Of a stretch of 64,000 nucleotides of DNA, positions 42,426-64,000 are shown piece by piece (within the stretch, counting starts at the first letter, position 1; the number at the start of each line of letters is the position of its first letter). Origin of the DNA: Chitinophagaceae bacterium. Lineage in GTDB: Bacteria > Bacteroidota > Bacteroidia > Chitinophagales > Chitinophagaceae. A program made the position numbers and the translations under genes. The stretch spans positions 12,930 through 76,929 of the forward strand of contig JAEUVO010000052.1 of assembly GCA_016786885.1 (NCBI GenBank), read 5' to 3'. A model generated the notes under the pieces. That model did not search any database, had not been told where the DNA came from, and saw only the letters and a program-made list of their open reading frames with translations.

Positions 42426-43637
42426 TTAAAATAGCCTGGCAATCTGATACACTCCTGCTGCCAGCAAAGCACTGATAGGAATAGTAAGTACCCATGCCCA
42501 GATTAGGTTGATCGTTACTCCCCATCTGACGGCAGATAATCTCTTTGTAGCACCTACTCCCATAATGGCACCTGTGATGGTGTGGGTGGTACTTACAGGA
42601 ATCTTCAAGGCTTCAGTAATGAAAAGGGTCAATGCGCCGGCAGTTTCTGCAGCTACTCCCTCAAAAGGAGTGACTTTGGTGATCTTGGTGCCCATAGTCT
42701 TTACAATCTTCCAGCCACCACTCATGGTGCCGAGCCCGATTGCAGCATAACATGCAATAGGTACCCAGTCAGGCATTTGTTTGAAATCAGTAATTGTACC
42801 GCCAGCTATTAACGCAGCTGTAATGATTCCCATTACTTTTTGCGCATCATTACCACCGTGCCCAATACTGAATGCGGCTGATGAGATCAATTGTAACCTT
42901 TTAAACCACTGATTTGCTTTATGTGCATTCAGATTGCTCAGGTAAAGAGAAAAAGAAGCCATTACGAGCAAAATGAAGGATAACAGGATCCATTTGAAAT
43001 TTTTCGAATAAAAAATGACCTGGCTGATATAATTTTCATAATGTGTTTTTTTCGCCAGCACCTCTTTATTAAACTCAAGACTAATAGCGAGAAAAATGAT
43101 AACGAAAATTATCACACAAACGGAAAATATTTTTGATGTCCAGCCTTTTTTAAAGGAGCTTAAGAACCATAAAGACATAATGAAGGCCATCACCATACCA
43201 ATGAGGGGCGCCAGGAAAATAAAACTGGCGGTTCTGATAATGATAGATGAATTAACTGCCTCAAATCCTCCTGCTGCAATAGCTGCGCCGGCAAAACCGC
43301 CGATCAGTGTGTGTGAAGATGAAGAAGGAATGCCCAGCCACCATGTCAACAGGTTCCAGGCTATGGCTGCTATTAGGCCGGAAAAAATAACGACCATCAT
43401 ATTACCTTCCAGTATATGATCAGGCTTTACTGTTTTAGCAACAGTATCAGCAACGCCATGGTCTTTGAAGATAAAGAAGGCTATAGAATTAAATACTGCA
43501 GCCCACAAAACTGCCTGGAAAGGAGTAAGTACTTTGGTAGACACTACAGTGGCAATAGAATTGGCCGCATCGTGAAAGCCGTTGATATAATCAAATATCA
43601 GTGCTAGAGCTATGATGGTTATGAGAAAAGGTGTCAT
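42426..43637 (-). CDS. Inorganic phosphate transporter, PiT family
   Basis: NGFHDAANS, PSSSSHTLIG, HGGNDAQK, PVSTTH. Confidence 0.96.
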   Translation of the reverse strand: MTPFLITIIALALIFDYINGFHDAANSIATVVSTKVLTPFQAVLWAAVFNSIAFFIFKDHGVADTVAKTVKPDHILEGNMMVVIFSGLIAAIAWNLLTWWLGIPSSSSHTLIGGFAGAAIAAGGFEAVNSSIIIRTASFIFLAPLIGMVMAFIMSLWFLSSFKKGWTSKIFSVCVIIFVIIFLAISLEFNKEVLAKKTHYENYISQVIFYSKNFKWILLSFILLVMASFSLYLSNLNAHKANQWFKRLQLISSAAFSIGHGGNDAQKVMGIITAALIAGGTITDFKQMPDWVPIACYAAIGLGTMSGGWKIVKTMGTKITKVTPFEGVAAETAGALTLFITEALKIPVSTTHTITGAIMGVGATKRLSAVRWGVTINLIWAWVLTIPISALLAAGVYQIARLF

Positions 43638-43672
43638 AAATATTAGTCAGATGATGGAGTAATAGCTGGTGC

Positions 43673-44323
43673 TTATGCGTATTTGATGATTATTGACTCT
43701 ATCACATTACTGGCGTCTTCACATTTATCAGTAACAATCTCCATTACCTGGTATATTTCTCTTTTTTTGATTACTTCTTTGGCATCTGGCTCCGTAGCGA
43801 ACAGTCTTTCAATACTCATATCAAAAATATCGTCTGCCTGGTTTTCAATGCTGTTTATTTTCACCAAAGCCTCGGTGATATTGCGCATATTTTTCATATC
43901 CCGCAGTTCAGTTACCGCAATTTTTACCTGCTGGCAGCTTTGTTCAATTAACTCAGAAAATTTCTGCATTCCCATATCATTAGGATTTACCCGGTAGAAA
44001 TTGATCTTTTTGGCAGAAGCATAGATATAGTCAGCAATATCATCCAGCGAAGTGGCCAGGTAGTGAATGTCTTCCCTGTCAAACGGGGTAATGAAATTAC
44101 GGCCGAGTTCAGTGAACAGGTTGTGGGTCAGTTCATCATTGGCATGTTCCAGATCTTCGATCTGTATGATCAGGGCAGCTCTTTTATCAAAATCAGGTTC
44201 CGCTACCACATCTTTGAGCTGGGAGCCCATTTTGGATACGTTGTCAGCTACTTTTTCGAATAATTCATAAAATACCTTGTTCTTCGGCATGAAGATCTTC
44301 AGAAAAGAATTGAGTCCGGCCAT
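43673..44323 (-). CDS. DUF47 (PhoU-like) phosphate-transport regulator
   Basis: LEHANDE, FITPFDREDI, ENQADDIF, DKCEDA; directly upstream of PiT. Confidence 0.94.
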   Translation of the reverse strand: MAGLNSFLKIFMPKNKVFYELFEKVADNVSKMGSQLKDVVAEPDFDKRAALIIQIEDLEHANDELTHNLFTELGRNFITPFDREDIHYLATSLDDIADYIYASAKKINFYRVNPNDMGMQKFSELIEQSCQQVKIAVTELRDMKNMRNITEALVKINSIENQADDIFDMSIERLFATEPDAKEVIKKREIYQVMEIVTDKCEDASNVIESIIIKYA

Positions 44324-44420: not shown

Positions 44421-44470
44421 TAATAATAACTTAATATATAAATAAAATTAGGGTAACAATTCAATAACAA
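44421..44470 (+). promoter_or_regulatory. 11-bp-periodic TAA(C)A array (Pho-box-like) upstream of the porin
   Basis: TAATAA 44421, TAATAT 44432, TAAAAT 44443, TAACAA 44454, TAACAA 44465. Confidence 0.6.
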
Positions 44471-44504: not shown

Positions 44505-45836
44505 ATGTTTTCGGCAAAACAACTGCTGTTAAAGTACCTGTTATCTTCGCTTTTCGCCTTTTTCTTTTTTCTGAGCAGTTATTCTCAGCGATACCTTTCT
44601 GATATTGATTCTTCTTTCTTTATCAAGGATACTGTCAGGCCGGTCATAAAGCGATTCGAAAATCTGCGTATTACCGGGTATATCCAGCCGCAGTTTCAAA
44701 GGGCCCAATCAGACGGCGCTCCCTCATATACAGGGGGTAATTTTTCAGCATTCTCCAGCAGCCGGTTTATGCTTCGCCGGGCAAGGGTGAAGATCGACTA
44801 TGTGATGCCTTCAAAATTAAAATATCCCCGGGCACTTTTCTCCTTTCAGATAGATGCTACTGAAAGAGGGGTAATTGTGCGGGATATGTTTTTAAAGCTA
44901 TTTGAAACTAAGCGAAATCTTTTTTCTTTAACAGCCGGGTTGTTTGCCCGCCCGTTTGGATATGAAGTCAACCTTTCATCTGCATTCAGGGAAACACCGG
45001 AAAGAGGCAGAATGTCTCAGATATTAATGCCCTCTGAAAGAGATATCGGGGTAATGGTATCACATGAACCACAGGAAACGAAGCGACAGCGATCTCGATT
45101 TAAATTTGATCTTGGATTTTTTAACGGGCAAGGATTATCCGGTACGACAGATTTTGATAGTCATAAAGATCTTATTTCAAGAATGTTTGTACGGCCCTTT
45201 ACCAATCAAAAGATCGAGTTGTCAGGAGGGTTGTCTTACCTGAGGGGTGGATGGAAGAATGGAACCAGGTACGTATACGAAAGCGGAATTGCCGCTAATG
45301 GAGATCATATATTTATTATAGACTCCTCTGCGTCAAATCTTGGAAGATCTTCACCCCGGCATTACTATGGCGCCGATTTTCAATGCAAGTTTCGGCATAA
45401 ATGGGGGGAAAGTGAATGGAGAGCCGAGTATTGGTTTGGAACTCAACCAGGCACGACTGTTTCCACCAGTAATCCGGGAACTCTGCCAACATCAAATGGT
45501 AACCCTGTTCCCACTTATGTCCGGCATTTTGATGGGATATTCTTACTCTTTTTGCAGAATATTATTACTGCCGATCACCAACTGATGATAAAGTATGACT
45601 GGTATGATCCAAACATAAAAGTATCCAAGCTGGAAATTGGCAAACCAGGTACTAACCTTACCATAGCAGATATAAAATTTTCAACTTTAGGTATCGGTTA
45701 TTCTTATCACCTAAACCCCCAGACCAAACTCATCCTGTATTATGATATTGTGAAGAATGAAACCACCCAAATGACTGGCTATTCTGCTGATCTGAAGGAT
45801 AATATTCTGACCTGCCGCCTTCAATTCCGGTTCTAA
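44505..45836 (+). CDS. Porin, phosphate-selective O/P-like
   Basis: FMLRRARVKIDY, FQIDATERG, GLFARPFGYE, RDIG, FNGQG, C-terminal RLQFRF. Confidence 0.8.
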   Translation: MFSAKQLLLKYLLSSLFAFFFFLSSYSQRYLSDIDSSFFIKDTVRPVIKRFENLRITGYIQPQFQRAQSDGAPSYTGGNFSAFSSSRFMLRRARVKIDYVMPSKLKYPRALFSFQIDATERGVIVRDMFLKLFETKRNLFSLTAGLFARPFGYEVNLSSAFRETPERGRMSQILMPSERDIGVMVSHEPQETKRQRSRFKFDLGFFNGQGLSGTTDFDSHKDLISRMFVRPFTNQKIELSGGLSYLRGGWKNGTRYVYESGIAANGDHIFIIDSSASNLGRSSPRHYYGADFQCKFRHKWGESEWRAEYWFGTQPGTTVSTSNPGTLPTSNGNPVPTYVRHFDGIFLLFLQNIITADHQLMIKYDWYDPNIKVSKLEIGKPGTNLTIADIKFSTLGIGYSYHLNPQTKLILYYDIVKNETTQMTGYSADLKDNILTCRLQFRF

Positions 45837-45845
45837 AGCCGCACT

Positions 45846-45922
45846 TAACATTCCGGTAACATTCCCATCATAATTGGTTAACATGGGGGTAACATACCAG
45901 TAATGTAGCGGACACAACTTTG
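45846..45922 (+). promoter_or_regulatory. Six-unit 11-bp-periodic TAACAT array (Pho-box-like) plus -7 element CAACTTTG
   Basis: TAACAT at 45846, 45857, 45879, 45890; TCATAA 45868; TAATGT 45901; CAACTTTG 45915-45922. Confidence 0.8.
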
Positions 45923-50680: not shown

Positions 50681-51886
50681 TCAGTTGCGTGGGGTGTAAG
50701 CATAAGCCACTTCATACACCTTTTTGTTCAAGCCAGGTATTAATTGTCCCAGTTTTAAATCCTGTTTCTGCGGAGTGGGTTCGCAAACAGAATATTTTTC
50801 ACCATTATAGATGATAGGTGTGCCAACCGGTTTATCAAACCTTACCGCAATGGTAACATGTTCCGGGAAGGCCAGTACTATCATCGGCAGATTATAGATC
50901 TCCTTTACCAAGCAAAAGAACAGGGCTGCCCTGTCGTCACAATCACTTTGTTCATACAGGAGTGTTTGTTCAGGGCTCAGTCTTTTTTCATTTCCAAACT
51001 GCCTGCTGTCAGGCTCAAACAAAAATGCATAACGGGTGAAGCGCATCAGGAAATCGATGCCGTTTTTTTGGTTCATTCCTTTGACATGTTTTTTCAGGTC
51101 GGGAATCAGTGAGCTGTAGGTTTCTTTGCTGAGGGGAATATTAAAGTAAGATTCATAATCAACCACCGGGTAGTTGGCAAAAATTGTTTTTATCTGCGGG
51201 TTCAGCCTGAGTTTGAAATGATAATCCAGCTCGTTATAGTTGAAGCTGATCTCTTTTTCCTGGTAATCTGTTTTATTAAAATCGGGCAGATGTGTCACTT
51301 TGTACGAAAACCCTTTCACAGCGCCGGGCACAGGTATGATTACTTCTGTAAATATCTCTTTTTCAAAATTGATGATTCCGTAGTCATGATAGTTCAGGCA
51401 TATATACTGCTTGCCATTACGCAGGCGGCCCGGTATATTATAGATGTTCTCATCTGTTTGTACGTAAAATAATATCCTGTCTGCTTTTATACTCAGTATT
51501 GCATCATATCCTGAACCAGTGAGCAGAAACCATTTATACAATGTGTAGCGGTGATAATTGGCGGCTTTAGGACTTATATGCTGAGCCGTTTTCCGGATCA
51601 GCTGGTAGTAGAGCCAGTCATCCAGCCGGTATTGTTCTTTGTATTGCTGCAATGCTTTTATAAGCGATGAATAATCTCTGGTTACCATGGTTTGGTAGAA
51701 ACCCTGAACTGTTTTTTCTGACAATGAGGCAGTAAAATCGACAAATAAGGATTGTTCAAAAGGGAGGTTTACCGGTTCGCCATAAAAGTCAAAATTGATA
51801 GAGGCTTCCGTCTGCCGGGCTTCGGATGAGGCGGGGGCCAGGCAGGCAGCCAGCAGGAGTGATAATATGTAAAGCTTTGTTTTCAT
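50681..51886 (-). CDS. Secreted protein with transglutaminase-like Cys-His motif
   Basis: Signal peptide; SDCDDRAALF, AFPEHVTIAV, VCEPT motifs. Family assignment is inference. Confidence 0.7.
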   Translation of the reverse strand: MKTKLYILSLLLAACLAPASSEARQTEASINFDFYGEPVNLPFEQSLFVDFTASLSEKTVQGFYQTMVTRDYSSLIKALQQYKEQYRLDDWLYYQLIRKTAQHISPKAANYHRYTLYKWFLLTGSGYDAILSIKADRILFYVQTDENIYNIPGRLRNGKQYICLNYHDYGIINFEKEIFTEVIIPVPGAVKGFSYKVTHLPDFNKTDYQEKEISFNYNELDYHFKLRLNPQIKTIFANYPVVDYESYFNIPLSKETYSSLIPDLKKHVKGMNQKNGIDFLMRFTRYAFLFEPDSRQFGNEKRLSPEQTLLYEQSDCDDRAALFFCLVKEIYNLPMIVLAFPEHVTIAVRFDKPVGTPIIYNGEKYSVCEPTPQKQDLKLGQLIPGLNKKVYEVAYAYTPRN

Positions 51887-51980
51887 ACAGGCTCTGTATA
51901 AAGCTACAAAAACTTAACAATAAGGTAATATTAAATTTTTCATTTCTCAATAATTACCCCTAATCCGTTGTTTTAATCAG

Positions 51981-52035
51981 TAATTATTAATTAATGCGCT
52001 CGTAACAACCCGGTAATAATGATGAATGAATTTTA
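51981..52035 (+). promoter_or_regulatory. Four-unit 11-bp TAA array plus -7-like GAATTTTA, with no credible gene downstream
   Basis: TAATTA 51981, TAATGC 51992, TAACAA 52003, TAATAA 52014; GAATTTTA at 52028, 14 nt after the last unit as at 45901-45915. Confidence 0.55.
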
Positions 52036-52154: not shown

Positions 52155-53183
52155 TTAATAAATTTCTCTCAGAAGTATTTCTTCATCTTTCTGCTCTGCT
52201 ACAGGGAGCGAAAAGACATATTCAAGTGATTTGGCAATACTATCTGAATAGTCTTTTCGAATAACTGGCGAACTTTCCATCCAGCTATCGAAATGTGAAG
52301 TAAAATTTTTATCGATTGCAGGCAGGCATGTAATACCCAGTTTTGTAAGGGCAGCGGCATTAGATTCCTGTTCATACTGGCCGCTGATGGGGATAGCGAG
52401 GATTTTTTTTCCAAGATGAAGCGCTTCCGCAGGAGTTTCAAAACCGGCGCCGCAGATTATTCCGGAACAGGTGATAAGGCTTTTATTGAACATGCCTTTG
52501 TTGACGGGTATAAAACGGATATTTTCTTCTTGTCTTATTCTATCTGTTTCTCTTGAGAAAATTTCAAACTGAATGCCGGGGAAAGCCTGAAAAATTGATT
52601 TAAGTTGTGGTTCGCAGTAAGATGGCAGGTAAACAGTAATATGATTACCGTCTGATGGCTCTGCCTGCAGTATTTCATTTTTTATAACAGGTCCAAAAAT
52701 AAAATCGTCGTAGGATTCAAAATGAAGCCCTGCATGATATGTTGCTTTTATGTATTGTTTCAGCAGGTATTCTCCGGTTATACTTTTTTTATCGGGCCTG
52801 GGAGTATGTGGCGACTGAAAGCTGGCCTGGTGGCCAAAATGAACAGAGGGTATTTTTTTGCGGACACAGGCTGCTGATGTGATGTAATCGAAATCATTCA
52901 GGATAAGATCATATTTTTCTACCGGCAGATCCCGGATCTCCTGTTTTACCCTCAATGGTTGAATTTTTTTGATCATCTGCCAGTAATCCAACCCACCCTT
53001 GCAATTATAGTAAAGGCTGATGCCTTTGCTGCGGTATTTAATCGGGGCATCAAGTTGAAGATTACTGTTATCTCCGCTCAGAAAGATATCAACCGTTCCA
53101 TATTCCTGCAAATACGGGAGTAAGGTCATCGCCCTGCTGATATGCCCGTTACCGGTAGCCTGAACTGCGTAGAGTATTTTCAT
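52155..53183 (-). CDS. GT-B glycosyltransferase (MJ1255/Glyco_trans_1_3-like); start MKILYA at 53183
   Basis: YAVQATGNGHISRA, LNDFD, ICGAGFETPAEALHLGK, GQYEQESNA. Confidence 0.85.
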   Translation of the reverse strand: MKILYAVQATGNGHISRAMTLLPYLQEYGTVDIFLSGDNSNLQLDAPIKYRSKGISLYYNCKGGLDYWQMIKKIQPLRVKQEIRDLPVEKYDLILNDFDYITSAACVRKKIPSVHFGHQASFQSPHTPRPDKKSITGEYLLKQYIKATYHAGLHFESYDDFIFGPVIKNEILQAEPSDGNHITVYLPSYCEPQLKSIFQAFPGIQFEIFSRETDRIRQEENIRFIPVNKGMFNKSLITCSGIICGAGFETPAEALHLGKKILAIPISGQYEQESNAAALTKLGITCLPAIDKNFTSHFDSWMESSPVIRKDYSDSIAKSLEYVFSLPVAEQKDEEILLREIY

Positions 53184-53193
53184 TTTGCATTTA

Positions 53194-54036
53194 TTAATGA
53201 AGGGAATTAATAAATAGGCCGATCTCATCCGTTATCACACTCAACGTAGGTATCTTTTTATTCATTTGTATAATATTCGCTCCTGTAAACTCTTTTTCAT
53301 CATATTGATAGATAGTCCATTCATTATTTGTGAACTCAAGAGAAGTGAGGTTCTCGATCCAGTCACCGCTATTTAAGTAGATTACCGTCCCGTTCTTTGT
53401 TTCTATTAATTTCTTTTGCGGCTGGTGTATATGACCGCAGATCACATAATCGTATCCTTTTTCGATGGCCAGTTCTGCTGCAGTTTGTTCAAAATCTGCA
53501 ATCCAGCTCACGGCTTTCTTTACACTGTTTTTTATTTTCTTGCTGAAACTCATTTTTGGCCGACCCAATTTTTTCAGCCACCAGTTGATGAAACGATTGC
53601 AGAGTATCAGCCAGTCGTAACCAAAGCCTCCCAGTTTGGCAATGATCTTTGCACTGCCTTTGGTGGTATTGTCAAATACATCACCGTGGAATACCCATGT
53701 CATTTTTCCATTGATCTCTACCACCAGTTTGTCCACCAGCTGAAAGTTGCTTAGCTGAATGCCGCTGTAGCGGCGAAGCATCTCATCATGATTGCCTGTG
53801 ATGTATACTACTCTTGTGCCATTATCAAGAAGATTCATGATCTCTTTTATTACCTGGAGGTGAGATGGAGGGAAATAACGTTTGCTGAACTGCCAGCCAT
53901 CAATTATATCTCCATTCAGAACGAGAAGGCGTGGCGAAATACTTTGCAGGTAATTGACAATTTCTTTTGCATGGCAACCATAGGTGCCAAGGTGCAGGTC
54001 TGAAATGACGGCAACGTCAAGATTTCTTTTTTTCAA
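53194..54036 (-). CDS. Calcineurin-like metallophosphoesterase (LpxH/PlcP-like); TTG start
   Basis: SDLHLG, NGDIID, GNHD, HGD, CGHIH, NSGDW. Confidence 0.9.
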   Translation of the reverse strand: MKKRNLDVAVISDLHLGTYGCHAKEIVNYLQSISPRLLVLNGDIIDGWQFSKRYFPPSHLQVIKEIMNLLDNGTRVVYITGNHDEMLRRYSGIQLSNFQLVDKLVVEINGKMTWVFHGDVFDNTTKGSAKIIAKLGGFGYDWLILCNRFINWWLKKLGRPKMSFSKKIKNSVKKAVSWIADFEQTAAELAIEKGYDYVICGHIHQPQKKLIETKNGTVIYLNSGDWIENLTSLEFTNNEWTIYQYDEKEFTGANIIQMNKKIPTLSVITDEIGLFINSLH

Positions 54037-54053
54037 TGTGTACAGAGGTTTTA

Positions 54054-54130
54054 CAAAATACGTAAAGAGTTATTACCTGAATGCGAAGAATGATTTAAGA
54101 AATTGTAATCAATATGTGATGTAATCATTA
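54054..54130 (-). promoter_or_regulatory. 11-bp-periodic array plus -7-like GTATTTTG for the phosphoesterase-GT operon
   Basis: Minus-strand units at 54130 TAATGA, 54119 TCACAT, 54108 TTACAA, 54097 TAAATC, 54075 TAATAA (54086 poor); -7-like element starts 14 nt after the last unit. Confidence 0.5.
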
Positions 54131-54191
54131 ATACATACTTGCTGGTGTATATATTATTCAAATGTTACCAGGCAAAAAATTATTGAACTAT

Positions 54192-54257
54192 TCATTTTTC
54201 GATAACTATTCGTTTATCTCTTCTTAAGATCAACTTCATATACCTGTGTCAACTTCG
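54192..54257 (+). promoter_or_regulatory. Degenerate 11-bp-periodic array plus CAACTTCG for susC
   Basis: TCATTT 54192, TAACTA 54203, TTATCT 54214, TAAGAT 54225, TCATAT 54236; CAACTTCG at 54250. Confidence 0.5.
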
Positions 54258-54298
54258 CTTCTCCAATGGATAGGTTAATAAACTAAAACAACTTTCTT

Positions 54299-57200
54299 AT
54301 GTCAGTAAATCAATTTTTAAAATCCGGAAGGCCTGCTTTATTTTTCATTATCAGTATACTTTTCTCCTGTCTCTTATTTGCTCAAAAAGTAACGAACGGG
54401 AAAGTAATATCTGCGGATAATCAACAACCAATGGCAGGGGTTACTATCACTGTCAAGGGAACTGGTGTAATGGCTACTACAGATCAGTCAGGGTTATTTA
54501 GCATCATTGCTTCTGATAATGATGTATTAATTATCAGTAATGTCGGTTTTATCAGCAGGGATGTAAAAGCTTCAGAAGCACATTCAATTATTCTTGAATC
54601 TGAAACTAAGAGTATGAGTGAAGTGGTAGTAACGGCTTTAGGTATAAGGAAGGAAACCAAAAGGTTGGGCTATTCTGTGCAGGAAGTAAAAGGCTCAGAT
54701 CTGCTGAAAGCAAGGGAACCCAATGCAATTAATGCATTGGTGGGTAAAGTTGCGGGACTTTCCGTAGGTGCTTCAACTGAAATACTCGGCAGGCCCCAAA
54801 TTTTGTTGCGTGGAAACAGCGTCAATTTCTTTGTAATAGATGGAGTGCCTATTAATTCAGACACCTGGAACATCAGCCCAGATGACATCGAAAGTTATTC
54901 AGTATTAAAAGGCCCTACAGCTGCGGCATTGTATGGTAACAGGGCAATCAATGGTGCAATAATTATTAATACAAAAAAAGGGTCAAAGGATAAAAGAGGA
55001 TTTAGTATAGAGTTTAACTCCAGTACCATGTTTGAAAAGGGATATAACGCATTACCAAAAGTGCAGGATGAGTATGGACCCGGTGATCATGGTAAGTATT
55101 CATTTGTAGATGGAAGAGGAGGTGGGTTGAACGATGGAGACTATGATATCTGGGGGCCAAAATTTGAAGGCCAGCTGATAGCACAGTATGACAGCCCGAT
55201 TGATCCTGCAACAGGATTACGTACAAAAACTCCCTGGATTGCCAGAGGGAAAGATAACCTGAGCCGGTTTATACAGACAGGGTTGTTAACTACAAACAGT
55301 ATTTCTGTTTCTTCGAGTTCAGAGAAATCCGATCTCCGTTTCTCTTTGTCTAACACCTATCAGAAGGGGATAGTGCCCAACACAAAACTCAACGGGTTTA
55401 ACTTTAATACATTTATCGGGCATAATTTCTCACCTCGCCTTCGTTTTGAGGCCAATGTAAATTATAACAGGCAGTCTACTCCCAATGTCCCTGACGTTAA
55501 TTATGGGCCCAACAGTATGATATATAACATTACTATCTGGGGTGGTGCAGATTGGGATATTGATGATATGAAAAATTACTGGCAACCGGGTAAGGAAGGT
55601 GTTCAGCAGATATATGCAGAATACCAGCGATACAATAATCCCTGGTTCCTTGTGAAAGAATGGTTAAGAGGCCACCATATGAACTACCTCAACGGGTATG
55701 CGAGCCTTAACTTTAAAATCAATAAAAACCTTGAATTACTTGGCCGGACATCTGTATCAACGTATGATCTTTTGCGTACTGAGAAATTTCCTTATTCTGC
55801 TACAAGCTATGGTCGTGAAGAGGCAAAAGGAGATTACAGGGAAGATATCAGAAAGCTTTTTGAAAATAATACTGAACTGTTGCTGAAGGTTAACAAGAAG
55901 TTTTTCAATAACGATTTTAGTGTGTCTGGCCTTGTGGGCGGCAATGCCCGTAATATGCGTTTCAATTCAAGTTATGTTACAACCGATTACCTGAATGTGC
56001 CTGGTATTTACACATTTGCAAATTCCCGCAATCCTGTCAAAGCCTCAAATTTTACATCAGAAATGCTGGTGCTGAGTGCTTACTCTTCTGTTGATATTTC
56101 TTACAAGAACTACATAAATGTCGGCGCTACTATCCGTTGGGATAAATCATCAGCAATTCCTAATAGCAAGCCAGGTACTTATCCATCAGTTTCTGTAAGT
56201 ACTGTATTGTCAGATTACATGAAAATGCCTGCTGCTTTATCGTTTCTTAAACTGAAAGGCTCTTTTGCCAGTGTAAGGGATGGCGGTACCCAGGCTTATA
56301 TCGGCCCATCATCATATCCAATTGGGTATGGTGCTGCATATACCACTGCTTATGACGGACCAAGCTACAGCCTGGTAAGCAAAGTGTATAGTACAAGATT
56401 AGATTATAATAATACCAGTGCGGCCTATTACACAGATAATTTATATGATGATATTGCAACTGCCAACAGGACCAACTACGAGGCAGGGTTGGATATCCGG
56501 TTCTTGAAAAACAGGATAGGTTTGGATGCTGTTTACTTCACTTATATTGATGGCCCGCAAATTTTCCGTAACCCTATTTCACAGTCTACAGGTTATACCT
56601 CTTTATATATTAATGCAGCGAAGTATGCTACCAAAGGGTTTGAGTTTACTATTAATGGCAGCCCGGTGAAAACAAAAAGTGGTTTTTCATGGGATGTGTT
56701 ATTGAACTGGTCTACTTACAAACAAACTTATCTTGAATTACCTGCGGATTCAATATTGGTAGGACAGATATATGTAAAAGAAGGAGACAGGCTTGATATG
56801 TACCAGGGTACTGCTTATGCCCGCACCCAGGATGGTCAAATTATTAATGACGGAGGAGGCCGTCCTATAGTTCTACCAAAGAACCAGATATTGGGTTATT
56901 CAAATCCTGATTGGGTTTGGGGACTTACAAATAAGTTTAACTACAAGAATATTTTCCTGACCGTTCAGATAGACGGAAGAGTAGGTGGAGAAATGGAAAA
57001 TTATATCCGTCGTCAAACATTCCGCGGTGGTCGTCATATTGAAACTGTTCAGGGAGCTATGGGCGATGCCCGTTACCAGGATTTCCTTGGTGTGAAGTCA
57101 TGGGTAGGTGAAGGTGTTGTTATAACTGCCGGCACACCTATTTATGATCCGGTAACCGGTCAGATAACCAATTACAAGGATCTCACTTTTGCGCCCAACG

Positions 57201-57505
57201 GTACAAAAACATATTTGCAGGATTATATCAGCCGTTACAATTCTACAGCGGAAGGTAACCTGATGAGTAAAACATTTGCGAAACTAAGAGAGATAACACT
57301 GGGTTATAATATTCCTTCAAAAGTTCTTGGCAAGTCTTTTATCAAAAATGCATCAGTATCGTTTGTAGCCCGTAATCTCTTCTATTTTGCGGATAAGAAA
57401 AATAAGGATGTGGATATTGATCAATATGCTGGAAGTCAATCATCCAGCAGTCTTCAATCACCTACTGTAAAAAGATTTGGATTCAACCTTAACCTTGTTT
57501 TCTAA
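54299..57505 (+). CDS. SusC/RagA family TonB-dependent outer-membrane transporter
   Basis: EVVVTALG, LVGKVAGL, VIDGVP, VLKGPTAAALYG.RAINGAIIINTK, C-terminal GFNLNLVF. Confidence 0.96.
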   Translation: MSVNQFLKSGRPALFFIISILFSCLLFAQKVTNGKVISADNQQPMAGVTITVKGTGVMATTDQSGLFSIIASDNDVLIISNVGFISRDVKASEAHSIILESETKSMSEVVVTALGIRKETKRLGYSVQEVKGSDLLKAREPNAINALVGKVAGLSVGASTEILGRPQILLRGNSVNFFVIDGVPINSDTWNISPDDIESYSVLKGPTAAALYGNRAINGAIIINTKKGSKDKRGFSIEFNSSTMFEKGYNALPKVQDEYGPGDHGKYSFVDGRGGGLNDGDYDIWGPKFEGQLIAQYDSPIDPATGLRTKTPWIARGKDNLSRFIQTGLLTTNSISVSSSSEKSDLRFSLSNTYQKGIVPNTKLNGFNFNTFIGHNFSPRLRFEANVNYNRQSTPNVPDVNYGPNSMIYNITIWGGADWDIDDMKNYWQPGKEGVQQIYAEYQRYNNPWFLVKEWLRGHHMNYLNGYASLNFKINKNLELLGRTSVSTYDLLRTEKFPYSATSYGREEAKGDYREDIRKLFENNTELLLKVNKKFFNNDFSVSGLVGGNARNMRFNSSYVTTDYLNVPGIYTFANSRNPVKASNFTSEMLVLSAYSSVDISYKNYINVGATIRWDKSSAIPNSKPGTYPSVSVSTVLSDYMKMPAALSFLKLKGSFASVRDGGTQAYIGPSSYPIGYGAAYTTAYDGPSYSLVSKVYSTRLDYNNTSAAYYTDNLYDDIATANRTNYEAGLDIRFLKNRIGLDAVYFTYIDGPQIFRNPISQSTGYTSLYINAAKYATKGFEFTINGSPVKTKSGFSWDVLLNWSTYKQTYLELPADSILVGQIYVKEGDRLDMYQGTAYARTQDGQIINDGGGRPIVLPKNQILGYSNPDWVWGLTNKFNYKNIFLTVQIDGRVGGEMENYIRRQTFRGGRHIETVQGAMGDARYQDFLGVKSWVGEGVVITAGTPIYDPVTGQITNYKDLTFAPNGTKTYLQDYISRYNSTAEGNLMSKTFAKLREITLGYNIPSKVLGKSFIKNASVSFVARNLFYFADKKNKDVDIDQYAGSQSSSSLQSPTVKRFGFNLNLVF

Positions 57506-57537
57506 GAAACATTCAACAACAACTCAAAACTGATTAT

Positions 57538-59133
57538 ATGAAAAAGTACATACTAACTTTCACAGCAGCAGTGATCTTATTCACTTCCTGTAAAAAAAAG
57601 TTTGAAGATCTTGAAAGTAACCCCAATCTTCCCGAGAGTGTACCAGCAGCACTGGCATTGAATGGCATTGAAACCAGCATGGCCGGTTTTCAACGCCCCT
57701 GGAACCTGGAACAACGCTGGAACCAGTTTGCCTGCTGCAATTATAATTACTACGGCAACCAGGAGTATAACTGGAGCGGGGCGTCTTTATTTTATACAAC
57801 ATTGAAAAATGTTATAAAGATGGAAGAGGAAGCAAAGGCAGGCGGTGGAGGAGATGTAAATCCCTACTCTGCTTTGGGTAAATTTTTCAGGGCTTATTTC
57901 TTTTATGAAATGACGATGAGGGTAGGTGATCTGCCGATGAAAGAGGCATTAAACGGAATAAATAATCTTACCCCAAAGTATGATACGCAAAAAGAAATAT
58001 TCATACAGGTAATTAAATGGCTGGAAGAAGCCAATACAGATATAACAGCACTTATTGCTTCTGCGAATAATACCTTGTTAGGTGATTATTTCTTTAATAA
58101 TGATTTGCGGAAATGGCAAAATGTCGTAAACACATTCCGCCTCCGGGTACTCATCAGCCTGAGTAAAAAAAGCGGTGATGCCGATCTGGCATTAGGGTCA
58201 TCTTTTTCTGCTATCATGAGTAATAAACCAAAGTACCCGGTAATAGAGAGTATGAATGATAACCTGCAGTTTGTTTGGGTTAATCCATTCAATAAATACC
58301 CGATTAACCCTGATAACTTTGGATTTGATGCAACCCGTTACAATATGTCTTCTACTCATATTGGCCTGCTGACCTCTCTTAAAGATCCCCGAGTCTTCGC
58401 AGTAGCTGACCCCGCAGGTTCACAGCTTAAAGCTGGCCTCTTGCCATCTGATCATGATGCGTACGTTGGTGCAAGCCCGGCTGAAGATCTTGCTGACATG
58501 TCAACTAAAGCGGGATTTGATAATGGCCCGGGTTTTACACCGGGTAAATATTCATTTTATGGCCGCTACCGTTATTACCGTACTTACACAGCAGAGAATA
58601 CTATCTTGATCGGATATCCTGAATTGTGTTTCAATATTGCTGAAGCGATCAATCTTGGTTGGATAAGTGGAAATGCAGAGGAGTGGTATATAAAAGGAAT
58701 AAAGGCTTCAATAGGGTTTTATGGGATTAAAGATGGAATCAATGATTTTTATTATCTAAAACCTGGTGGTAAGGTAACTGAAAGTGCTGATTATATAAAC
58801 TATAAAGTAACCTTTGTATTCAATGACTATTACAGCCAGCCTGCTGTAGCGTATGCCGGTAATAATGCCACTGGTAGGAACCAAATACTCAATCAGAAGT
58901 ATCTTGCTTTTTTTCAAAACTCAGGATTTGAAGCATATTATAACCAGCGTCGTACAGGAGTTCCTGTTTTTGCGCAGGGTGGCCCGGGAACAGGTAACAG
59001 CGGTCAGATACCGAAGAGATTTCAGTACCCCGGTACAGAAAGAACTACCAATCCAGCTAACCTGGCAGAAGCATTGCAAAGACAGTTTGCCGGACAGGAT
59101 AATATAAATGCAGCAATGTGGCTGATCCAATAA
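57538..59133 (+). CDS. SusD/RagB family lipoprotein
   Basis: Lipobox TSC-KKKFED, SNPNLP, GDLPMKEAL, PKYDTQKEI, QKYLAFF...EAYYNQRRTG, PKRFQYP. Confidence 0.95.
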   Translation: MKKYILTFTAAVILFTSCKKKFEDLESNPNLPESVPAALALNGIETSMAGFQRPWNLEQRWNQFACCNYNYYGNQEYNWSGASLFYTTLKNVIKMEEEAKAGGGGDVNPYSALGKFFRAYFFYEMTMRVGDLPMKEALNGINNLTPKYDTQKEIFIQVIKWLEEANTDITALIASANNTLLGDYFFNNDLRKWQNVVNTFRLRVLISLSKKSGDADLALGSSFSAIMSNKPKYPVIESMNDNLQFVWVNPFNKYPINPDNFGFDATRYNMSSTHIGLLTSLKDPRVFAVADPAGSQLKAGLLPSDHDAYVGASPAEDLADMSTKAGFDNGPGFTPGKYSFYGRYRYYRTYTAENTILIGYPELCFNIAEAINLGWISGNAEEWYIKGIKASIGFYGIKDGINDFYYLKPGGKVTESADYINYKVTFVFNDYYSQPAVAYAGNNATGRNQILNQKYLAFFQNSGFEAYYNQRRTGVPVFAQGGPGTGNSGQIPKRFQYPGTERTTNPANLAEALQRQFAGQDNINAAMWLIQ

Positions 59134-59242
59134 ATATTTCGAAATAGCATAGCAGCAGTTTTCTCATGCAAGCAGAGCAATCAGTAAGCGTAAACAAAGG
59201 CGGAACTTTTCTAAGTTTCGCTCCTTTTTAAAATTTTTGGAT

Positions 59243-61963
59243 ATGATCATTAGATATGTTCAGCCAATTTTATACCTATTAATTCATTTCGTTGCAAGTA
59301 CGCAAAATCATAAGCAGATAATAACCTTGCAGGTTCCGGGCAAAGACCAGTATGCTGTGATAAAGGAGAAAGGGGTTTCTGTTTTGCCAAGTGGTAGGTT
59401 TGTAACACCTGCAGGACAGATGATTCGTATCACCCATGATCCGTTTGGAATGGCGCTTTCACCTGATGGTAAGAAGGCTGTAACGCTGCACAACGGAGTT
59501 TTTACCATTATAGACCTTGTTACTCTCGGTCATACCCGTGTTCCATCATATGATAAAAAAATTACTTCGCCATTATCAAACGGATCTTTTTTGGGTGTTG
59601 CATTTTCACCTGATTCCAAAACAGTTTTTCTGAGTGGCGGAGATAACGGAGCGGTTATTATGTATGATATAGAAGAATTTCAGCGTATTGATTCAATTTC
59701 ATTAAACGGGCGGATTGATGGCATTGACTATACAGAGAGTTTTACTTCAGACCTGTTATTAAATGAAAATAACAACGAATTGCTAGTATTGGACAGGGGA
59801 AATTTTCGCCTGGTCAGAATTAACCTGGATTCTAAAAAGTTAACTGCTTCAATAAAGACTGGTCGCCAGCCTTTCGGGTTATCAACCAGCCCAGATAAGA
59901 AACTAGCTTTTGTTGCCAATGTGGGCATGTACTCCTATCCACTGGTGAAAGGAATGGACTCCACAAACTATAATTCTATGATGATCAACTGGCATCCATA
60001 TGGAGATAATACAGTTGAATCAATAAACGGCATTGTAATTGACGGAAAGAAAATCCCTGGTGTAGGGAGTCCTTTATCTCCAGAGGCTATGAGTGTGTTC
60101 ACTATTGACCTTGCAACAAACAAGGTGATCGATAAGTTTAAAACCGGCCATCAGATAGGGCAGATGATTGAGGATGCAGAAGTTGTGGGTGGAGCCAGCC
60201 CCAATTCTATCGCTGTTGGCAGCAGATACGCTTATGTAACCAATGCCACTAATGATAACATTTCTGTTATTGACTATACAACAAGGAAAATCATTTCTCA
60301 TATTCCGATCTCTGTTGATAAACGGATTGATAAATACCGTGGATTATTGCCATTTGGTATCACGTTGAGCAGAGATGAGAAAACATTGTATGTGGCCTTG
60401 CTTGGTTTCAATGCGGTGGCGGTTATTGATATAAATACGAAACTGACAAAGGGGCTGATACCAACCGGCTGGGGACCTGCCAGGGTACAGTTGTCCAAAG
60501 ATGAAAAAGAAATTTATGTTATCAGCTGTCGTGGCTTGGGGGCCGGTCCAAATGGAGGAGAGGGCTTTATTAAGCCAGTGCAGGGAACTTATGTTGGCGA
60601 TATTCAGCTGGCTACTTTTCAAAAAATCATTATGCCAGATGAAAAACAACTGGCTGATTATACAAGACAGACTATTGATAATACTATGCAGGCAGTGAGT
60701 GTAAATGATGATGAGAACAATCCACTGCCTGCATTGCCAAAACTCAGGCAAAGCCCTATCAGGCATATTGTTTATATCACTAAAGAAAACAGAACTTATG
60801 ATGAGGTGATGGGGCAGTTAAAAACCGGCAAAGGTGACCAGACACTGGCCAGGTATGGTGTAAATGTGAATGTGTACGGGAAAAACGATACTCTGAAAGT
60901 TTCTAATGCCGATGTGATGCCCAATCATAACAAAGCAGCAACTGAATTTTCTTATAGCGATAATTTTTATTGCGACAGCGATGCCTCTATTCATGGGCAT
61001 CACTGGATGGTTGGAGTGATACCTAATGAATGGGTTGAAGCCAACTCCAGTGTGAGTAAGACAGCTGACTACTTTTCTACTGCACCTGGTCGCCGGTTCC
61101 CGGGAAGTACCGGTAGTATGGACCCCGAAGATTACGCAGAAACCGGGGGTCTGTGGGAAGCACTAGAGAGAAACAAAATTTCATTTTACAATTTTGGTGA
61201 GGCAAATGAAACAGCACATGTAAGAGAAGAATGGTATGATACATTAACCGGGGCTGCACATGCAGTAATGGTACCCATGCAAAAAGCTTTGTGGAGCCGT
61301 ACTTCTCATAATTATGCTGGCTATAATACTAATATACCTGACCAGTTCAGGATGGAACAATTTGAAACAGAATTTACCAGAATGTGGATCGAAGGAAAAG
61401 AAGAGTTGCCGCAACTGATAACTATGCAGGTTCCCAATGATCATGGAGCCGGGCCGAGACCTGAGGATGGTTACCCATATGCACATTCATATATGGCGGA
61501 TAATGACCTGGCTGTTGGCAGAATCCTGCATTTTCTTTCCCGTACAAAATACTGGAAGAATATGCTGGTAATAATTACAGAAGATGATCCACAAGGCGGA
61601 GTGGATCATGTAGATGCTCACAGGAGTATTTTGCTGATGGCCGGCCCATATATAAAACGTAATTATGTTTCTCATACCCATGCAAACTTTGGTTCCATTC
61701 TGAAAATGATATATAATATCCTTAATATTGATTATGTGAATCAATATGATGTAACAGCATCGTTGTTGCAGGATTTCTTTACAGATAAGCCTGATTATAC
61801 ACCCTATAATTTTGTATTTCCTGATAAGAGAATATTTGATACACAAAAAGCCATGCAGCGATATAATAGAAGTATCGACTGGAAAAAAATTCAGCAAGGG
61901 CCAAAGATGGACGATGAAGATCAGCAGCGTACCGACCATTATAAGCAAAAGACTAACGAATAA
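59243..61963 (+). CDS. YncE-like beta-propeller fused to phosphoesterase (AcpA/PlcH, alkaline-phosphatase superfamily) domain, paralog A
   Basis: LPSGRFVTPAG, propeller repeats (KLAFVAN, YAYVTNA, TLYVAL), KENRTYDEV, FYCDSDASIHGHHW, PNDH, DNDLAVG, EDDPQGGVDHVDAHRS. Confidence 0.9.
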   Translation: MIIRYVQPILYLLIHFVASTQNHKQIITLQVPGKDQYAVIKEKGVSVLPSGRFVTPAGQMIRITHDPFGMALSPDGKKAVTLHNGVFTIIDLVTLGHTRVPSYDKKITSPLSNGSFLGVAFSPDSKTVFLSGGDNGAVIMYDIEEFQRIDSISLNGRIDGIDYTESFTSDLLLNENNNELLVLDRGNFRLVRINLDSKKLTASIKTGRQPFGLSTSPDKKLAFVANVGMYSYPLVKGMDSTNYNSMMINWHPYGDNTVESINGIVIDGKKIPGVGSPLSPEAMSVFTIDLATNKVIDKFKTGHQIGQMIEDAEVVGGASPNSIAVGSRYAYVTNATNDNISVIDYTTRKIISHIPISVDKRIDKYRGLLPFGITLSRDEKTLYVALLGFNAVAVIDINTKLTKGLIPTGWGPARVQLSKDEKEIYVISCRGLGAGPNGGEGFIKPVQGTYVGDIQLATFQKIIMPDEKQLADYTRQTIDNTMQAVSVNDDENNPLPALPKLRQSPIRHIVYITKENRTYDEVMGQLKTGKGDQTLARYGVNVNVYGKNDTLKVSNADVMPNHNKAATEFSYSDNFYCDSDASIHGHHWMVGVIPNEWVEANSSVSKTADYFSTAPGRRFPGSTGSMDPEDYAETGGLWEALERNKISFYNFGEANETAHVREEWYDTLTGAAHAVMVPMQKALWSRTSHNYAGYNTNIPDQFRMEQFETEFTRMWIEGKEELPQLITMQVPNDHGAGPRPEDGYPYAHSYMADNDLAVGRILHFLSRTKYWKNMLVIITEDDPQGGVDHVDAHRSILLMAGPYIKRNYVSHTHANFGSILKMIYNILNIDYVNQYDVTASLLQDFFTDKPDYTPYNFVFPDKRIFDTQKAMQRYNRSIDWKKIQQGPKMDDEDQQRTDHYKQKTNE

Positions 61964-61973
61964 ATAAAAAGCA

Positions 61974-64000
61974 ATGAGAAAAACGTTACTGTTATCCTTA
62001 TGCTCCTTTCTTATACTGCCCTCATTCGGGCAGGATAAAACTACCTCTGCTATAAAAGCCCGGTTAGAAAAAAAGAAGGTTTCTTTACCCAATGGCTGGA
62101 TATTGTCACCTGCGGGCCGTTCTTTACCGCTTGGAGACCTTCCATTGAATATAGCCGTGTCTAAATCAAAAAAATTGATTGCGGTTACCAACAACGGACA
62201 AAGTGTGCAGAGCATACAGTTAATTGATGTGAAAACGGAAAAGGAACTGGACCGGATAATTGTGCCAAAAGCATGGTATGGTTTGAAGTTCAGCGCTGAT
62301 GAAAGATTTTTATATGCCAGCGGCGGAAACGATAACTGGATTTTGAAGTTCGTACTTCAAAATAAAAAACTGGTATTGACCGACAGTATTCAGCTTGGTC
62401 AAAAATGGCCGGAAAAAATTTCTCCTGCAGGTATTGACATTGATGATGATACGAAAAAGATGTATGTAGTTACAAAGGAAAACAACTCACTGTATGTAGT
62501 GAATCTTGTTTCAAAAAATATCATTTATAAAGACACATTACTGGAACCTGCATATTCCTGCCTTTTGTCAAACAATAAAAAAGAACTCTATATTTCTTCC
62601 TGGGGTGGGAAAAAAATACTGGTATTTGATGTGAGTTCAAGAAAAATAACTGCACAAATACATGTTGGTGAAAACCCTAATGAATTGCTGCTTTCCAAAA
62701 ACGGCAAATTATTATTTGTTGCCAATGCCGGCGATAATGCAGTTTCTGTAATTGATATAGCCAGCCGTAAAGTCCTGGAAGTACTTAATGCAGCTTTATA
62801 TCCGGATGCACCCACAGGGTCAGCCAGTAACGGGCTTGCATTAAGTGAGGATCAGCAAACACTCTATGTGGCCAATGCAGATAACAATTGCCTGGCGGTT
62901 TTTGATGTAAGCAAACCGGGTTTCAGTAAATCAAAAGGATTTATTCCTGTTGGCTGGTATCCTACTAATGTCAAAGTAATTGGTAAAAAAATATTTGTAA
63001 GTAATGGCAAAGGCCTTTCATCATTACCTAATGCCAAAGGTCCTGATCCATCCAAGCATGACCAGGAAGTAAATTACCAGCACGGTGATTACAAAAATAA
63101 ACAGAGCCAGATACAATACATTGCCGGATTGTTTAAAGGTACTATGAGTATCATAGACGAACCGGGTGCTGGGCAATTGAGTATTTATTCAGAAGCTGTT
63201 TATCAAAATACACCTTACACTAAAGAAAAGGAACTGAATGCAAAAGGAGAGGCTGGTAACCCCATTCCCATGAAAGTGGGTGATGCATCTCCCATAAAAT
63301 ATGTGTTTTACATTATTAAAGAAAACAGAACTTATGACCAGGTGCTCAGTGACATGCCCGGTGGTAATGGCGATACAAGTTTATTATTGTTTGGGAAAAA
63401 AATAACGCCTAACCAGCACAAGCTTGCGGCCGAGTTTGTACTGCTTGATAATTTTTATGTAGATGGGGAAGTAAGCGCTGATGGACATAACTGGAGTACT
63501 GCTGCCAATGCCAATGACTACCTGGAGAAAACATGGCCTACTGATTATGGTGGTCGTGGTGGTAATTATGATGCAGAGGGTAACCGGGAAGTTTCAAATC
63601 CAGATCGGGGATTTATCTGGGATTATTGCAAAAGGGCCGGCGTGAGTTACAGAACCTACGGTGAATTTGCAGATGATTACAAAGCCAATATTAAAGTGCT
63701 GGAAAATCATTTTTGCCCTTATTACACCAGTTGGGATGAAAGTATAAAAGATACCACAAGGTTTTATCAATGGAAAAGAGAATTCGACTCTCTGTTAGCA
63801 GTCAATGCTGTTCCCCGGTTTAATTCACTCAGGTTTATCAATGACCATACAGAGGGACAAAGATTGGGGAAGCCCACACCATTTGCCCATGTGGCTGATA
63901 ACGATCTGGCCGTTGGAATGTTTGTGGAGTATCTGTCTAAAAGCCCGATTTGGAAAGAATCGGCAATTTTTATTATAGAAGATGATGCACAAAATGGCCC
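61974..64000 (+). CDS. YncE-like beta-propeller fused to phosphoesterase domain, paralog B, truncated by window end (absent from ORF track)
   Basis: Manual translation from ATG 61974: MRKTLLLSLCSFLILPSFGQ, LPNGWILSPAG, propeller repeats, KENRTYDQV, FYVDGEVSADGHNW, NDHTEG, DNDLAVG, EDDAQNG. Confidence 0.92.
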   Translation, partial: MRKTLLLSLCSFLILPSFGQDKTTSAIKARLEKKKVSLPNGWILSPAGRSLPLGDLPLNIAVSKSKKLIAVTNNGQSVQSIQLIDVKTEKELDRIIVPKAWYGLKFSADERFLYASGGNDNWILKFVLQNKKLVLTDSIQLGQKWPEKISPAGIDIDDDTKKMYVVTKENNSLYVVNLVSKNIIYKDTLLEPAYSCLLSNNKKELYISSWGGKKILVFDVSSRKITAQIHVGENPNELLLSKNGKLLFVANAGDNAVSVIDIASRKVLEVLNAALYPDAPTGSASNGLALSEDQQTLYVANADNNCLAVFDVSKPGFSKSKGFIPVGWYPTNVKVIGKKIFVSNGKGLSSLPNAKGPDPSKHDQEVNYQHGDYKNKQSQIQYIAGLFKGTMSIIDEPGAGQLSIYSEAVYQNTPYTKEKELNAKGEAGNPIPMKVGDASPIKYVFYIIKENRTYDQVLSDMPGGNGDTSLLLFGKKITPNQHKLAAEFVLLDNFYVDGEVSADGHNWSTAANANDYLEKTWPTDYGGRGGNYDAEGNREVSNPDRGFIWDYCKRAGVSYRTYGEFADDYKANIKVLENHFCPYYTSWDESIKDTTRFYQWKREFDSLLAVNAVPRFNSLRFINDHTEGQRLGKPTPFAHVADNDLAVGMFVEYLSKSPIWKESAIFIIEDDAQNG

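Follow-up and report, generated by a model that had tools for sequence, protein, structure and literature searches.

Loci that resemble polysaccharide utilisation loci (PULs), with phosphatases replacing the carbohydrate-active enzymes (CAZymes), were defined in Flavobacterium as phosphate utilisation systems (PUS, with PusCD pairs) and are induced by phosphate depletion (PMC8115612). PusCD1 and PusCD2 import glycerophosphoinositol or inositol phosphate (bioRxiv 10.64898/2026.09.03.749221). Other pusCD-like pairs adjoin aminophosphonate genes, as remarked in Lidbury 2020 and Connolly 2026 (PMC8115612; bioRxiv 10.64898/2026.09.03.749221), and this type has been mentioned, not dissected, in the PUS literature. 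Here we analyse a susC/susD pair followed by two large exported phosphoesterases, at positions 54,299 to 64,000 of a 64,000-nucleotide stretch (the window) of contig JAEUVO010000052.1, from a Chitinophagaceae metagenome-assembled genome (MAG) of 3.98 Mb, 99% complete. The contig extends 12.7 kb beyond the window; window coordinates are used throughout, and window-equivalent ones past 64,000. From the SusCD pair, the phosphoesterases, the phosphonate genes downstream and the Pho context, we concluded that the locus is most likely a PUS of the aminophosphonate-linked type. The elements described here are probably the half, in outer membrane and periplasm, of a PUS under PhoBR control that targets aminophosphonate-containing organic matter. 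The initial annotation, which had taken the locus for an organophosphorus utilisation locus and not a glycan PUL, is supported, the genes downstream being no glycoside hydrolases and being followed by PhoR/PhoB; yet the idea is not new as a concept, PUS and PusCD having been published. Undescribed is the combination of the fusions of a propeller to an AcpA/phospholipase C (PLC) domain and an NPP-like enzyme as the periplasmic esterases, DUF5690 as a likely permease, a PbfD/PhnX-like pathway with a PhnZ or PbfA end, and a defined operator.

The genes at the left of the locus lie where they had first been called:

54299-57505, + strand: susC, SusC/RagA-type TonB-dependent transporter, PusC-like (TIGR04056, 437.6 bits against a cut-off of 368)
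57538-59133, + strand: susD, SusD-like surface lipoprotein, PusD-like (PF12771, E 1.4e-58; lipoprotein signal with lipobox ...LFTSC)
59237-61963, + strand: fusion 1, 908 aa, with a Sec signal, a YncE-type beta-propeller and an AcpA/PLC-family (PF04185) domain
61974-64454 (64000 at the window edge), + strand: fusion 2, 826 aa in full and 675 aa within the window, with the architecture of fusion 1

In profile searches SusC contained the Plug and CarboxypepD_reg domains and no STN domain. Two hallmarks of a PUS were found: a SusC-like transporter with a SusD-like surface lipoprotein (TIGR04056, PF12771, lipobox), and the location of this pair beside phosphatases, phosphodiesterases and phosphonate enzymes, not CAZymes. 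A scan of 48 of the larger open reading frames of the window and the rest of the contig detected no glycoside hydrolase and no sugar-type regulator (hybrid two-component system, SusR, or a pair of extracytoplasmic function (ECF) sigma and anti-sigma factors near susC). The glycoside hydrolases, lyases and sugar regulators that make a classical glycan PUL are absent from the window, as had been noticed at first, and also from the 11 kb downstream.

Like PUS1 and PUS2 of F. johnsoniae, the locus has a SusC/SusD-like pair beside phosphoesterases, predicted to be Sec-exported and periplasmic, instead of CAZymes. It is also predicted to share with them membership of the Pho response and the order of events, an organophosphorus ester being imported first and hydrolysed in the periplasm afterwards. 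The esterases differ: propeller-AcpA/PLC fusions and an NPP-like enzyme are found here, whereas F. johnsoniae uses a phosphatidylinositol-type PLC (PI-PLC), a calcineurin-like phosphodiesterase and PhoA. Unlike the F. johnsoniae systems, this locus lacks an ECF/anti-sigma pair and adjoins PhoBR; it is joined to a C-P bond-cleaving pathway and to an inner-membrane DUF5690 protein, and its host is a Chitinophagaceae MAG.

Both large proteins combine a Sec signal, a YVTN/YncE propeller match and a PF04185 match (38 and 40 bits, gathering score 23), which bears out their first description as beta-propellers fused to an AcpA/PlcH-type phosphoesterase. They are paralogs, with 25% identity over their full length, of a family that comprises 1735 clusters (50% identity) at E<1e-30. 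Literature searches returned no paper on this family, and none on a bacterial phosphonolipid hydrolase. The AlphaFold (AF2) model of fusion 2 (pLDDT 88.7, pTM 0.90) shows a 7-bladed propeller (residues ~35-350) joined by a disordered linker to an alpha/beta domain (~385-800). Submitted whole to Foldseek, it matched propellers only, and the catalytic domain of fusion 1 was hence modelled separately, with lower quality (pLDDT 70.9). The top matches of this domain were 2D1G (AcpA), 8YK5, 9GY2, 8K3G and 9GYE; its best matches in the PDB include AcpA, 8YK5, PlcN, fungal and plant non-specific PLCs and PlcH, among which other alkaline-phosphatase-superfamily proteins (3LXQ, LtaS) are interleaved. 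When a profile was built from 55 homologs, the sole non-propeller structure matched was Francisella AcpA, 2D1G (E 3.6e-17).

The fusions share with AcpA (2D1G), PlcH, PlcN and the non-specific PLCs the alkaline-phosphatase-superfamily fold and the metal-ligand motifs ENR(S/T)(F/Y)D and DD...DH. In the pairwise alignment with AcpA, E450/N451 correspond to E43/N44, and D670/D671/H678 to D386/D387/H394, all metal ligands; E450, D670, D671 and H678 are invariant across the 55 homologs, and N451 is conserved in at least 90%. The nucleophiles are Ser175 in AcpA and Thr178 in PlcH, and a Ser or Thr is expected likewise in the fusions. Ser501, in a motif S-x-x-G-H-x-W, is invariant across the 55 homologs, and is a candidate for the nucleophile of fusion 2, although the alignment does not extend over the AcpA Ser175 stretch. 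The fusions are unlike AcpA and PlcH in their weak Pfam scores, in their N-terminal 7-bladed YncE-type propeller, in the surroundings of the expected nucleophile (S-x-x-G-H-x-W), and in having no PLipase_C_C domain, which profile searches found in neither of them. All 111 family members in related loci have Sec type-I signals ending in ...AQ, with no convincing lipobox and no tail of the type IX secretion system (T9SS). Because of these plain signals, the fusions should be periplasmic, as has been argued for the Pus1 enzymes of F. johnsoniae.

The second-best structural neighbour of the modelled fusion 1 domain is the glycerophosphoethanolamine ethanolaminephosphodiesterase of Streptomyces sanglieri (8YK5), a C-type enzyme (PMC5095149) that cuts the glycerol-O-P bond of a soluble lipid head group. 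The same reaction, on a phosphonate analogue, is what we propose for the fusions. The 8YK5 enzyme has ~12% identity, and differs from fusion 1 in being Tat-secreted, actinobacterial and without a propeller. We know of no report of its activity on phosphonate esters.

The locus continues past the window, as had been noticed at first, for another 11 kb of the contig. The genes between 64451 and 72945 are all on the + strand, with intergenic gaps of -8 to 86 nt:

64451-66487, + strand: second TonB receptor, with a 4-nt overlap between its start and the stop of fusion 2
66491-67066, + strand: PhnZ-like HD oxygenase (TIGR03276; crystallised PhnZ, E 5e-47)
67135-67809, + strand: PhnX-like hydrolase (TIGR03351; B. 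cereus phosphonatase, E 2e-20)
67810-69108, + strand: DUF5690 membrane protein (PF18943, E 1e-165; ~10 hydrophobic spans)
69101-70258, + strand: PbfD, aminoethylphosphonate oxidase, an FAD oxidase (TIGR03364, 434.8 bits against a cut-off of 285.1)
70295-71419, + strand: exported NPP-like enzyme of the alkaline phosphatase superfamily (DGFR and DHG motifs)
71506-72945, + strand: pyruvate kinase paralog (a housekeeping-type copy lies elsewhere in the genome)

Inspection of these downstream genes, which the initial annotation had proposed as a check, thus brought no glycoside hydrolase. PbfD oxidises 2-aminoethylphosphonate (AEP) and N-methyl-AEP to phosphonoacetaldehyde, which PhnX then hydrolyses to acetaldehyde and phosphate (PMC10590968). 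Given this chemistry, the downstream half is an aminophosphonate catabolic module. Compared with the PbfD-PhnX route (PMC10590968), PbfD is above its family cut-off here, and the hydrolase has the catalytic Asp and Lys: its FDIAGT and MGYHK motifs align with the regions of Asp12 (the DxAGT Asp) and Lys53 (the Schiff-base Lys) of 2IOF. It belongs to the PhnX-like clade (TIGR03351, marginal score) and not to canonical PhnX (TIGR01422, 124.6 against 220), and unlike that route the pathway sits behind SusCD and exported esterases. As for the PhnY*/PhnZ and PbfA routes for 1-hydroxy-AEP, the PhnZ-like protein aligns with PDB 4MLM (E 5e-47) over the DYIGE, HD, HEK, H-V and WDE residues, which are conserved here although its family score is just under the cut-off, and PbfA replaces PhnZ in sister loci. 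No PhnY*-type Fe/2OG dioxygenase was found among the genes of this locus, where alone it was searched for, the panel used to screen other loci not including PhnY*; 1-hydroxy-AEP would therefore have to be taken up ready-made from outside. DUF5690 holds the position that the dedicated inner-membrane importer has in AEP catabolic clusters, and belongs to another protein family than the AEP transporters AepXVW, AepP and AepSTU (PMC8316502). Sequence searches of the PDB returned no significant match for the NPP-like enzyme or for DUF5690 (no solved transporter for the latter), and the literature search retrieved no paper on DUF5690 function. Its position makes DUF5690 a strong candidate aminophosphonate permease, of a new family.

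The association of the esterase and phosphonate halves was examined in 80 genome loci gathered by fusion 2 and in 80 metagenome loci gathered by DUF5690 (L086-L165). The order SusC-SusD-(fusion 1 or NPP-like)-fusion 2-TonB receptor-PhnZ-PhnX-like-DUF5690-PbfD is kept in 35 of the 80 genome loci, even where SusC/SusD identity is only 30-60%; in locus L066 the phosphonate genes are on the other side. Cultured bacteria that share the gene order are Lacibacter luteus TTM-7 and Lacibacter sp. MH-610 (L014, L049). Phosphonate genes accompany DUF5690 in 68 of the 80 metagenome loci, DUF5690 standing between the PhnX-like gene and PbfD, or by PhnW/PhnX. Among the 39 such loci of at least 9 kb, SusC/D was present in 20 and an exported esterase of the alkaline phosphatase superfamily in 24 (NPP-like in 16, fusions in 7, canonical PC-PLC in 5, some loci having more than one type). 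Independent arrangements were also found. In L084, from another family, an NPP phosphodiesterase, a propeller-PF04185 fusion, DUF5690, PhnW, PhnX and PbfA follow in a row, the last three above their cut-offs. In L085, a canonical PC-PLC (PF04185) lies by PbfD, DUF5690, PhnZ and an NPP-like enzyme, adjoining PhoBR. A canonical PC-PLC is placed directly behind PbfD in five metagenome loci (L125, L132, L134, L149, L150). We consider the chain from SusCD through esterase and DUF5690 to phosphonate enzymes well supported as a whole; the specific role of the fusions within it is no more than plausible.

The end of the pathway is variable. Among 72 loci, 50 have PhnZ only and 9 PbfA only; the two were never found together. 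Sister loci lacking PhnZ carry PbfA, the (R)-1-hydroxy-AEP ammonia-lyase (664.7 bits, cut-off 525). Since PhnZ and PbfA both act on 1-hydroxy-AEP, and since no PhnY* was found among the genes of this locus, these loci seem built for AEP, N-methyl-AEP and ready-made hydroxy-AEP.

Some further observations were made on these loci. The PC-PLC of L085 (5388-7955; TIGR03396, 767 bits), beside PbfD/DUF5690, has no propeller. The loci compared with the others for the exclusivity of PhnZ and PbfA were L021, L023, L024, L026, L045, L072 and L088. Among public records, the closest are MAGs of Chitinophagaceae, from samples of the bioreactor or activated-sludge type, with fusion 2 identities of 99% (L072) and 95% (L004). 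L072, so close to the window, lacks PhnZ and has PbfA, and tblastn did not detect PbfD in it; the content of the module therefore turns over even among near-identical strains. The pyruvate kinase paralog, which closes the locus and has 34% identity to the genome's other pyruvate kinase, is retained, behind the NPP-like gene, in 5 loci from genomes and 3 from metagenomes. A GH1 beta-glucosidase-like gene, on the opposite strand and outside the same-strand block, lies near L006, L020, L025 and L065; no other degradative CAZyme was recognised in the 80 related genome loci.

The genes upstream of susC, together with the two-component system that follows the phosphonate genes, form the Pho context:

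42426-44323, - strand: operon of PhoU_div (DUF47; PF01865, E 7e-21) and a PHO4/Pit-type phosphate transporter (PF01384, E 1.7e-94), at the left edge of the island
44441-44469: operator-like dyads (12/14 and 11/14 matches) in the promoter region from which PhoU_div and the 443-aa gene diverge
44505-45836, + strand: 443-aa exported protein, porin-like, with a C-terminal Phe and no Pfam match; it recurs beside related loci (cluster c14)
45844-45905: 11-bp-phased GGTAACA/GTTAACA array before the TonB receptor, with dyads of 13/14, 12/14 and 11/14, the best of the genome
45939-50152, + strand: TonB-dependent receptor (938 aa) and 450-aa lipoprotein (non-SusD, no Pfam match), recurring beside related loci (clusters c15/c18)
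50681-51886, - strand: 401-aa protein, family unassigned, with operator-like dyads upstream at 51913-52018
52155-53228, - strand: MJ1255-family glycosyltransferase (PF13528, E 2e-28)
53194-54036, - strand: PlcP/LpxH-like metallophosphoesterase (PF00149, E 8e-16)
54152-54169, + strand: operator-like dyad TATTATTCAAATGTTACC (11/14 match), ~130-147 nt before the susC start
72998-74932, opposite strand, convergent to the phosphonate genes: PhoR-like kinase and PhoB-like regulator, the best PhoB/PhoR pair of the genome

The operator motif was derived de novo, from words common to the regions upstream of susC in 41 loci. The recurrent word is ATGTTACC, often present as TGTTACC-N4-TGTTACC, in the 7+4+7 layout of PhoB boxes. 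Of the 41 loci, 56% have a dyad matching at least 11 of 14 positions upstream of susC, mostly at one offset, against 1.5% of shuffles. Genome-wide, 47 intergenic dyads reach this score, and 9 of them, against 0.12 expected, lie in the intergenic DNA (967 nt) of the 44.4-54.2 kb region (Poisson 2e-14, or 9e-6 when they are counted as 4 separate promoters); one of the nine is upstream of the Pit/PhoU-like operon. The PhoB-like regulator (215.9 bits) is the top PhoB match of the genome, the runner-up scoring 178.9. Together this is good in-silico evidence that the island is under PhoB control. A direct repeat AACTATTC(A/G)T, its copies 18 bp apart at 54186 and 54204, was set aside, as it did not recur in other loci.

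The PlcP-like/glycosyltransferase pair is divergent from susC, and many related loci have it upstream of susC too (clusters c9/c10). This type of pair has been tied to phosphate-sparing lipid remodelling (PMC8115612), and the present one is a candidate phospholipid-to-glycolipid remodelling pair.

The mechanism that we favour would run as follows. Under phosphate limitation, PhoB would turn the island on. SusCD would bind and import a soluble phosphonate ester, either a deacylated phosphonolipid head group (e.g. glyceryl-AEP) or a phosphonoglycan fragment. In the periplasm, the two fusions and the NPP-like enzyme would cleave the alcohol-O-P bond, in a C-type reaction, and so free AEP, N-methyl-AEP or 1-hydroxy-AEP, which DUF5690 would move over the inner membrane. 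Phosphate would then be released from AEP and N-methyl-AEP by PbfD and the PhnX-like hydrolase, and from 1-hydroxy-AEP by the PhnZ-like enzyme. AEP, N-methyl-AEP and hydroxy-AEP are head groups of natural phosphonolipids and phosphonoglycans. As the alcohol-O-P bond is the sole ester bond in such molecules, a C-type cut by a PF04185 or NPP enzyme would yield the free phosphonate directly. As to the substrates first listed for the locus, the context favours compounds that contain aminophosphonates over sugar phosphates, nucleotides or teichoic acids. More tentatively, the locus may be a dedicated system for phosphonolipid or phosphonoglycan head groups, in which the fusions and the NPP-like enzyme would be the missing "phosphonate-ester C-type hydrolases" and DUF5690 the founder of a new aminophosphonate permease family; we hold this stricter version to be possible, and rather unlikely.

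Several results weigh against the integrated mechanism. When the phylum was sampled evenly, fusion 2 turned up in 28 of 301 genomes, and PbfD was present in 4 and DUF5690 in 5 of 27 of these; the proposal that the fusions are specific to phosphonate loci was rejected on the PbfD count. About half of the 80 related loci consist of fusion 2 alone amid unrelated genes. In the tree, all phosphonate-linked copies of fusion 2 fall into one 66-member clade, so the linkage may stem from few events. The NPP-like enzyme stands alone between SusD and PhnZ in many metagenome loci, and the fusions may thus be a supplement that serves another substrate, an ordinary phosphoester. Both the PhnZ-like and the PhnX-like protein fall slightly short of their NCBIfam cut-offs (210 against 214.6 bits, and 216 against 218.9), the pyruvate kinase paralog and the second TonB receptor have no explained role, and the hairpin after susD described below could separate transcription units.

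These results leave some room for an explanation by shared regulation only, which we judge unlikely and nevertheless take seriously. According to it, the island would hold separate Pho modules: SusCD and the fusions, as generic AcpA/PLC-like enzymes, would take ordinary phosphomono- and diesters such as phospholipid head groups and nucleotides, and the phosphonate module would be fed independently, e.g. with free AEP through the second TonB receptor. The scarcity of PbfD and DUF5690 in fusion 2 genomes and the many orphan fusion 2 genes speak for it, and so does the match to 2D1G, AcpA being a broad-range phosphatase. Pit, the PlcP-like enzyme and other phosphorus genes of the island plainly act separately, and the hairpin is conserved. 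Three points argue the other way. Fusion 2 and the TonB receptor overlap, and gaps of a few nucleotides run on into the phosphonate genes. An exported PF04185/NPP-type esterase is tightly ordered with DUF5690 and phosphonate enzymes in the independent arrangements (L084, L085 and the five metagenome loci). Finally, in the minimal loci SusC-SusD-NPP-PhnZ-PhnX-like-DUF5690-PbfD, the only cytoplasmic enzymes are phosphonate-specific.

The hairpin itself was analysed. The initial annotation had noticed a weak one at about 59196-59229, and had reasoned that phosphoesterases transcribed apart from susCD would count against its reading. The hairpin is real: a GC-rich stem at 59199-59222 on the + strand is followed by a T-run (GCGGnnCTnTTCnnnGnTnCGC plus T-run, the element reaching 59236). 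It is the best terminator-like site of the locus (z = -2.0 for the whole spacer), and read by eye a hairpin with T-run is present after susD in most of 38 related loci, with a stem whose sequence varies while pairing is kept. An Rfam scan of 53900-64000 gave no match. Because the hairpin ends ~15 nt ahead of the start codon of fusion 1, no separate promoter seems to fit behind it; the T-run reaches the start codon, and esterases set off by the hairpin as an independent unit are unlikely. It is more likely a partial terminator or mRNA-end element that sets the ratio of susCD to enzyme transcripts or shields the susCD message at its 3' end. Separately, a motif GCAGTTTTCTCAT recurs directly after the susD stop in the spacers of ~30 loci (59134-59236 in the window), over SusD identities of 30-96%.

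It is highly improbable that the fusions are true PLCs that, secreted or carried on vesicles, attack intact membrane lipids or phosphonolipids extracellularly, with SusCD or the second TonB receptor importing the head groups. PlcH, PlcN and non-specific PLCs are among the structural neighbours, and the Connolly preprint leaves open that a PLC acts extracellularly and PusCD then imports the monoester; the Sec type-I signals and the absence of a lipobox, a T9SS C-terminal domain and PLipase_C_C in the fusions nevertheless leave no secretion route evident. Least credible of all is a glycan PUL directed at carbon, for a polysaccharide bearing phosphate or phosphonate groups that the esterases merely remove: SusCD pairs classically serve glycans, and AEP-decorated glycans occur naturally, but neither the window nor the 11 kb downstream contains a glycoside hydrolase, a lyase or a sugar regulator, a single degradative CAZyme type, GH1-like and on the opposite strand, turned up in 4 of 80 related loci, and the surrounding genes are of Pho type.

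Much natural phosphonate is bound as esters, in the lipids and glycans of ciliates, invertebrates and some bacteria, and is not free AEP. How bacteria release it is largely unknown, because the pathways described start at the free compound. The locus and its many relatives offer a testable chain, from SusCD through exported esterases and DUF5690 to PbfD/PhnX-like and PhnZ or PbfA, in bacteria that are common in activated sludge, soil and fresh water, and they allow working functions to be proposed for two large uncharacterised families, the propeller-phosphoesterase fusions and DUF5690. If its genes shared only their regulation, the locus would be one more Pho island, of limited interest. If it is a dedicated system for phosphonate esters, it would be the first defined route in Bacteroidota from polymer- or lipid-bound phosphonate to phosphate.

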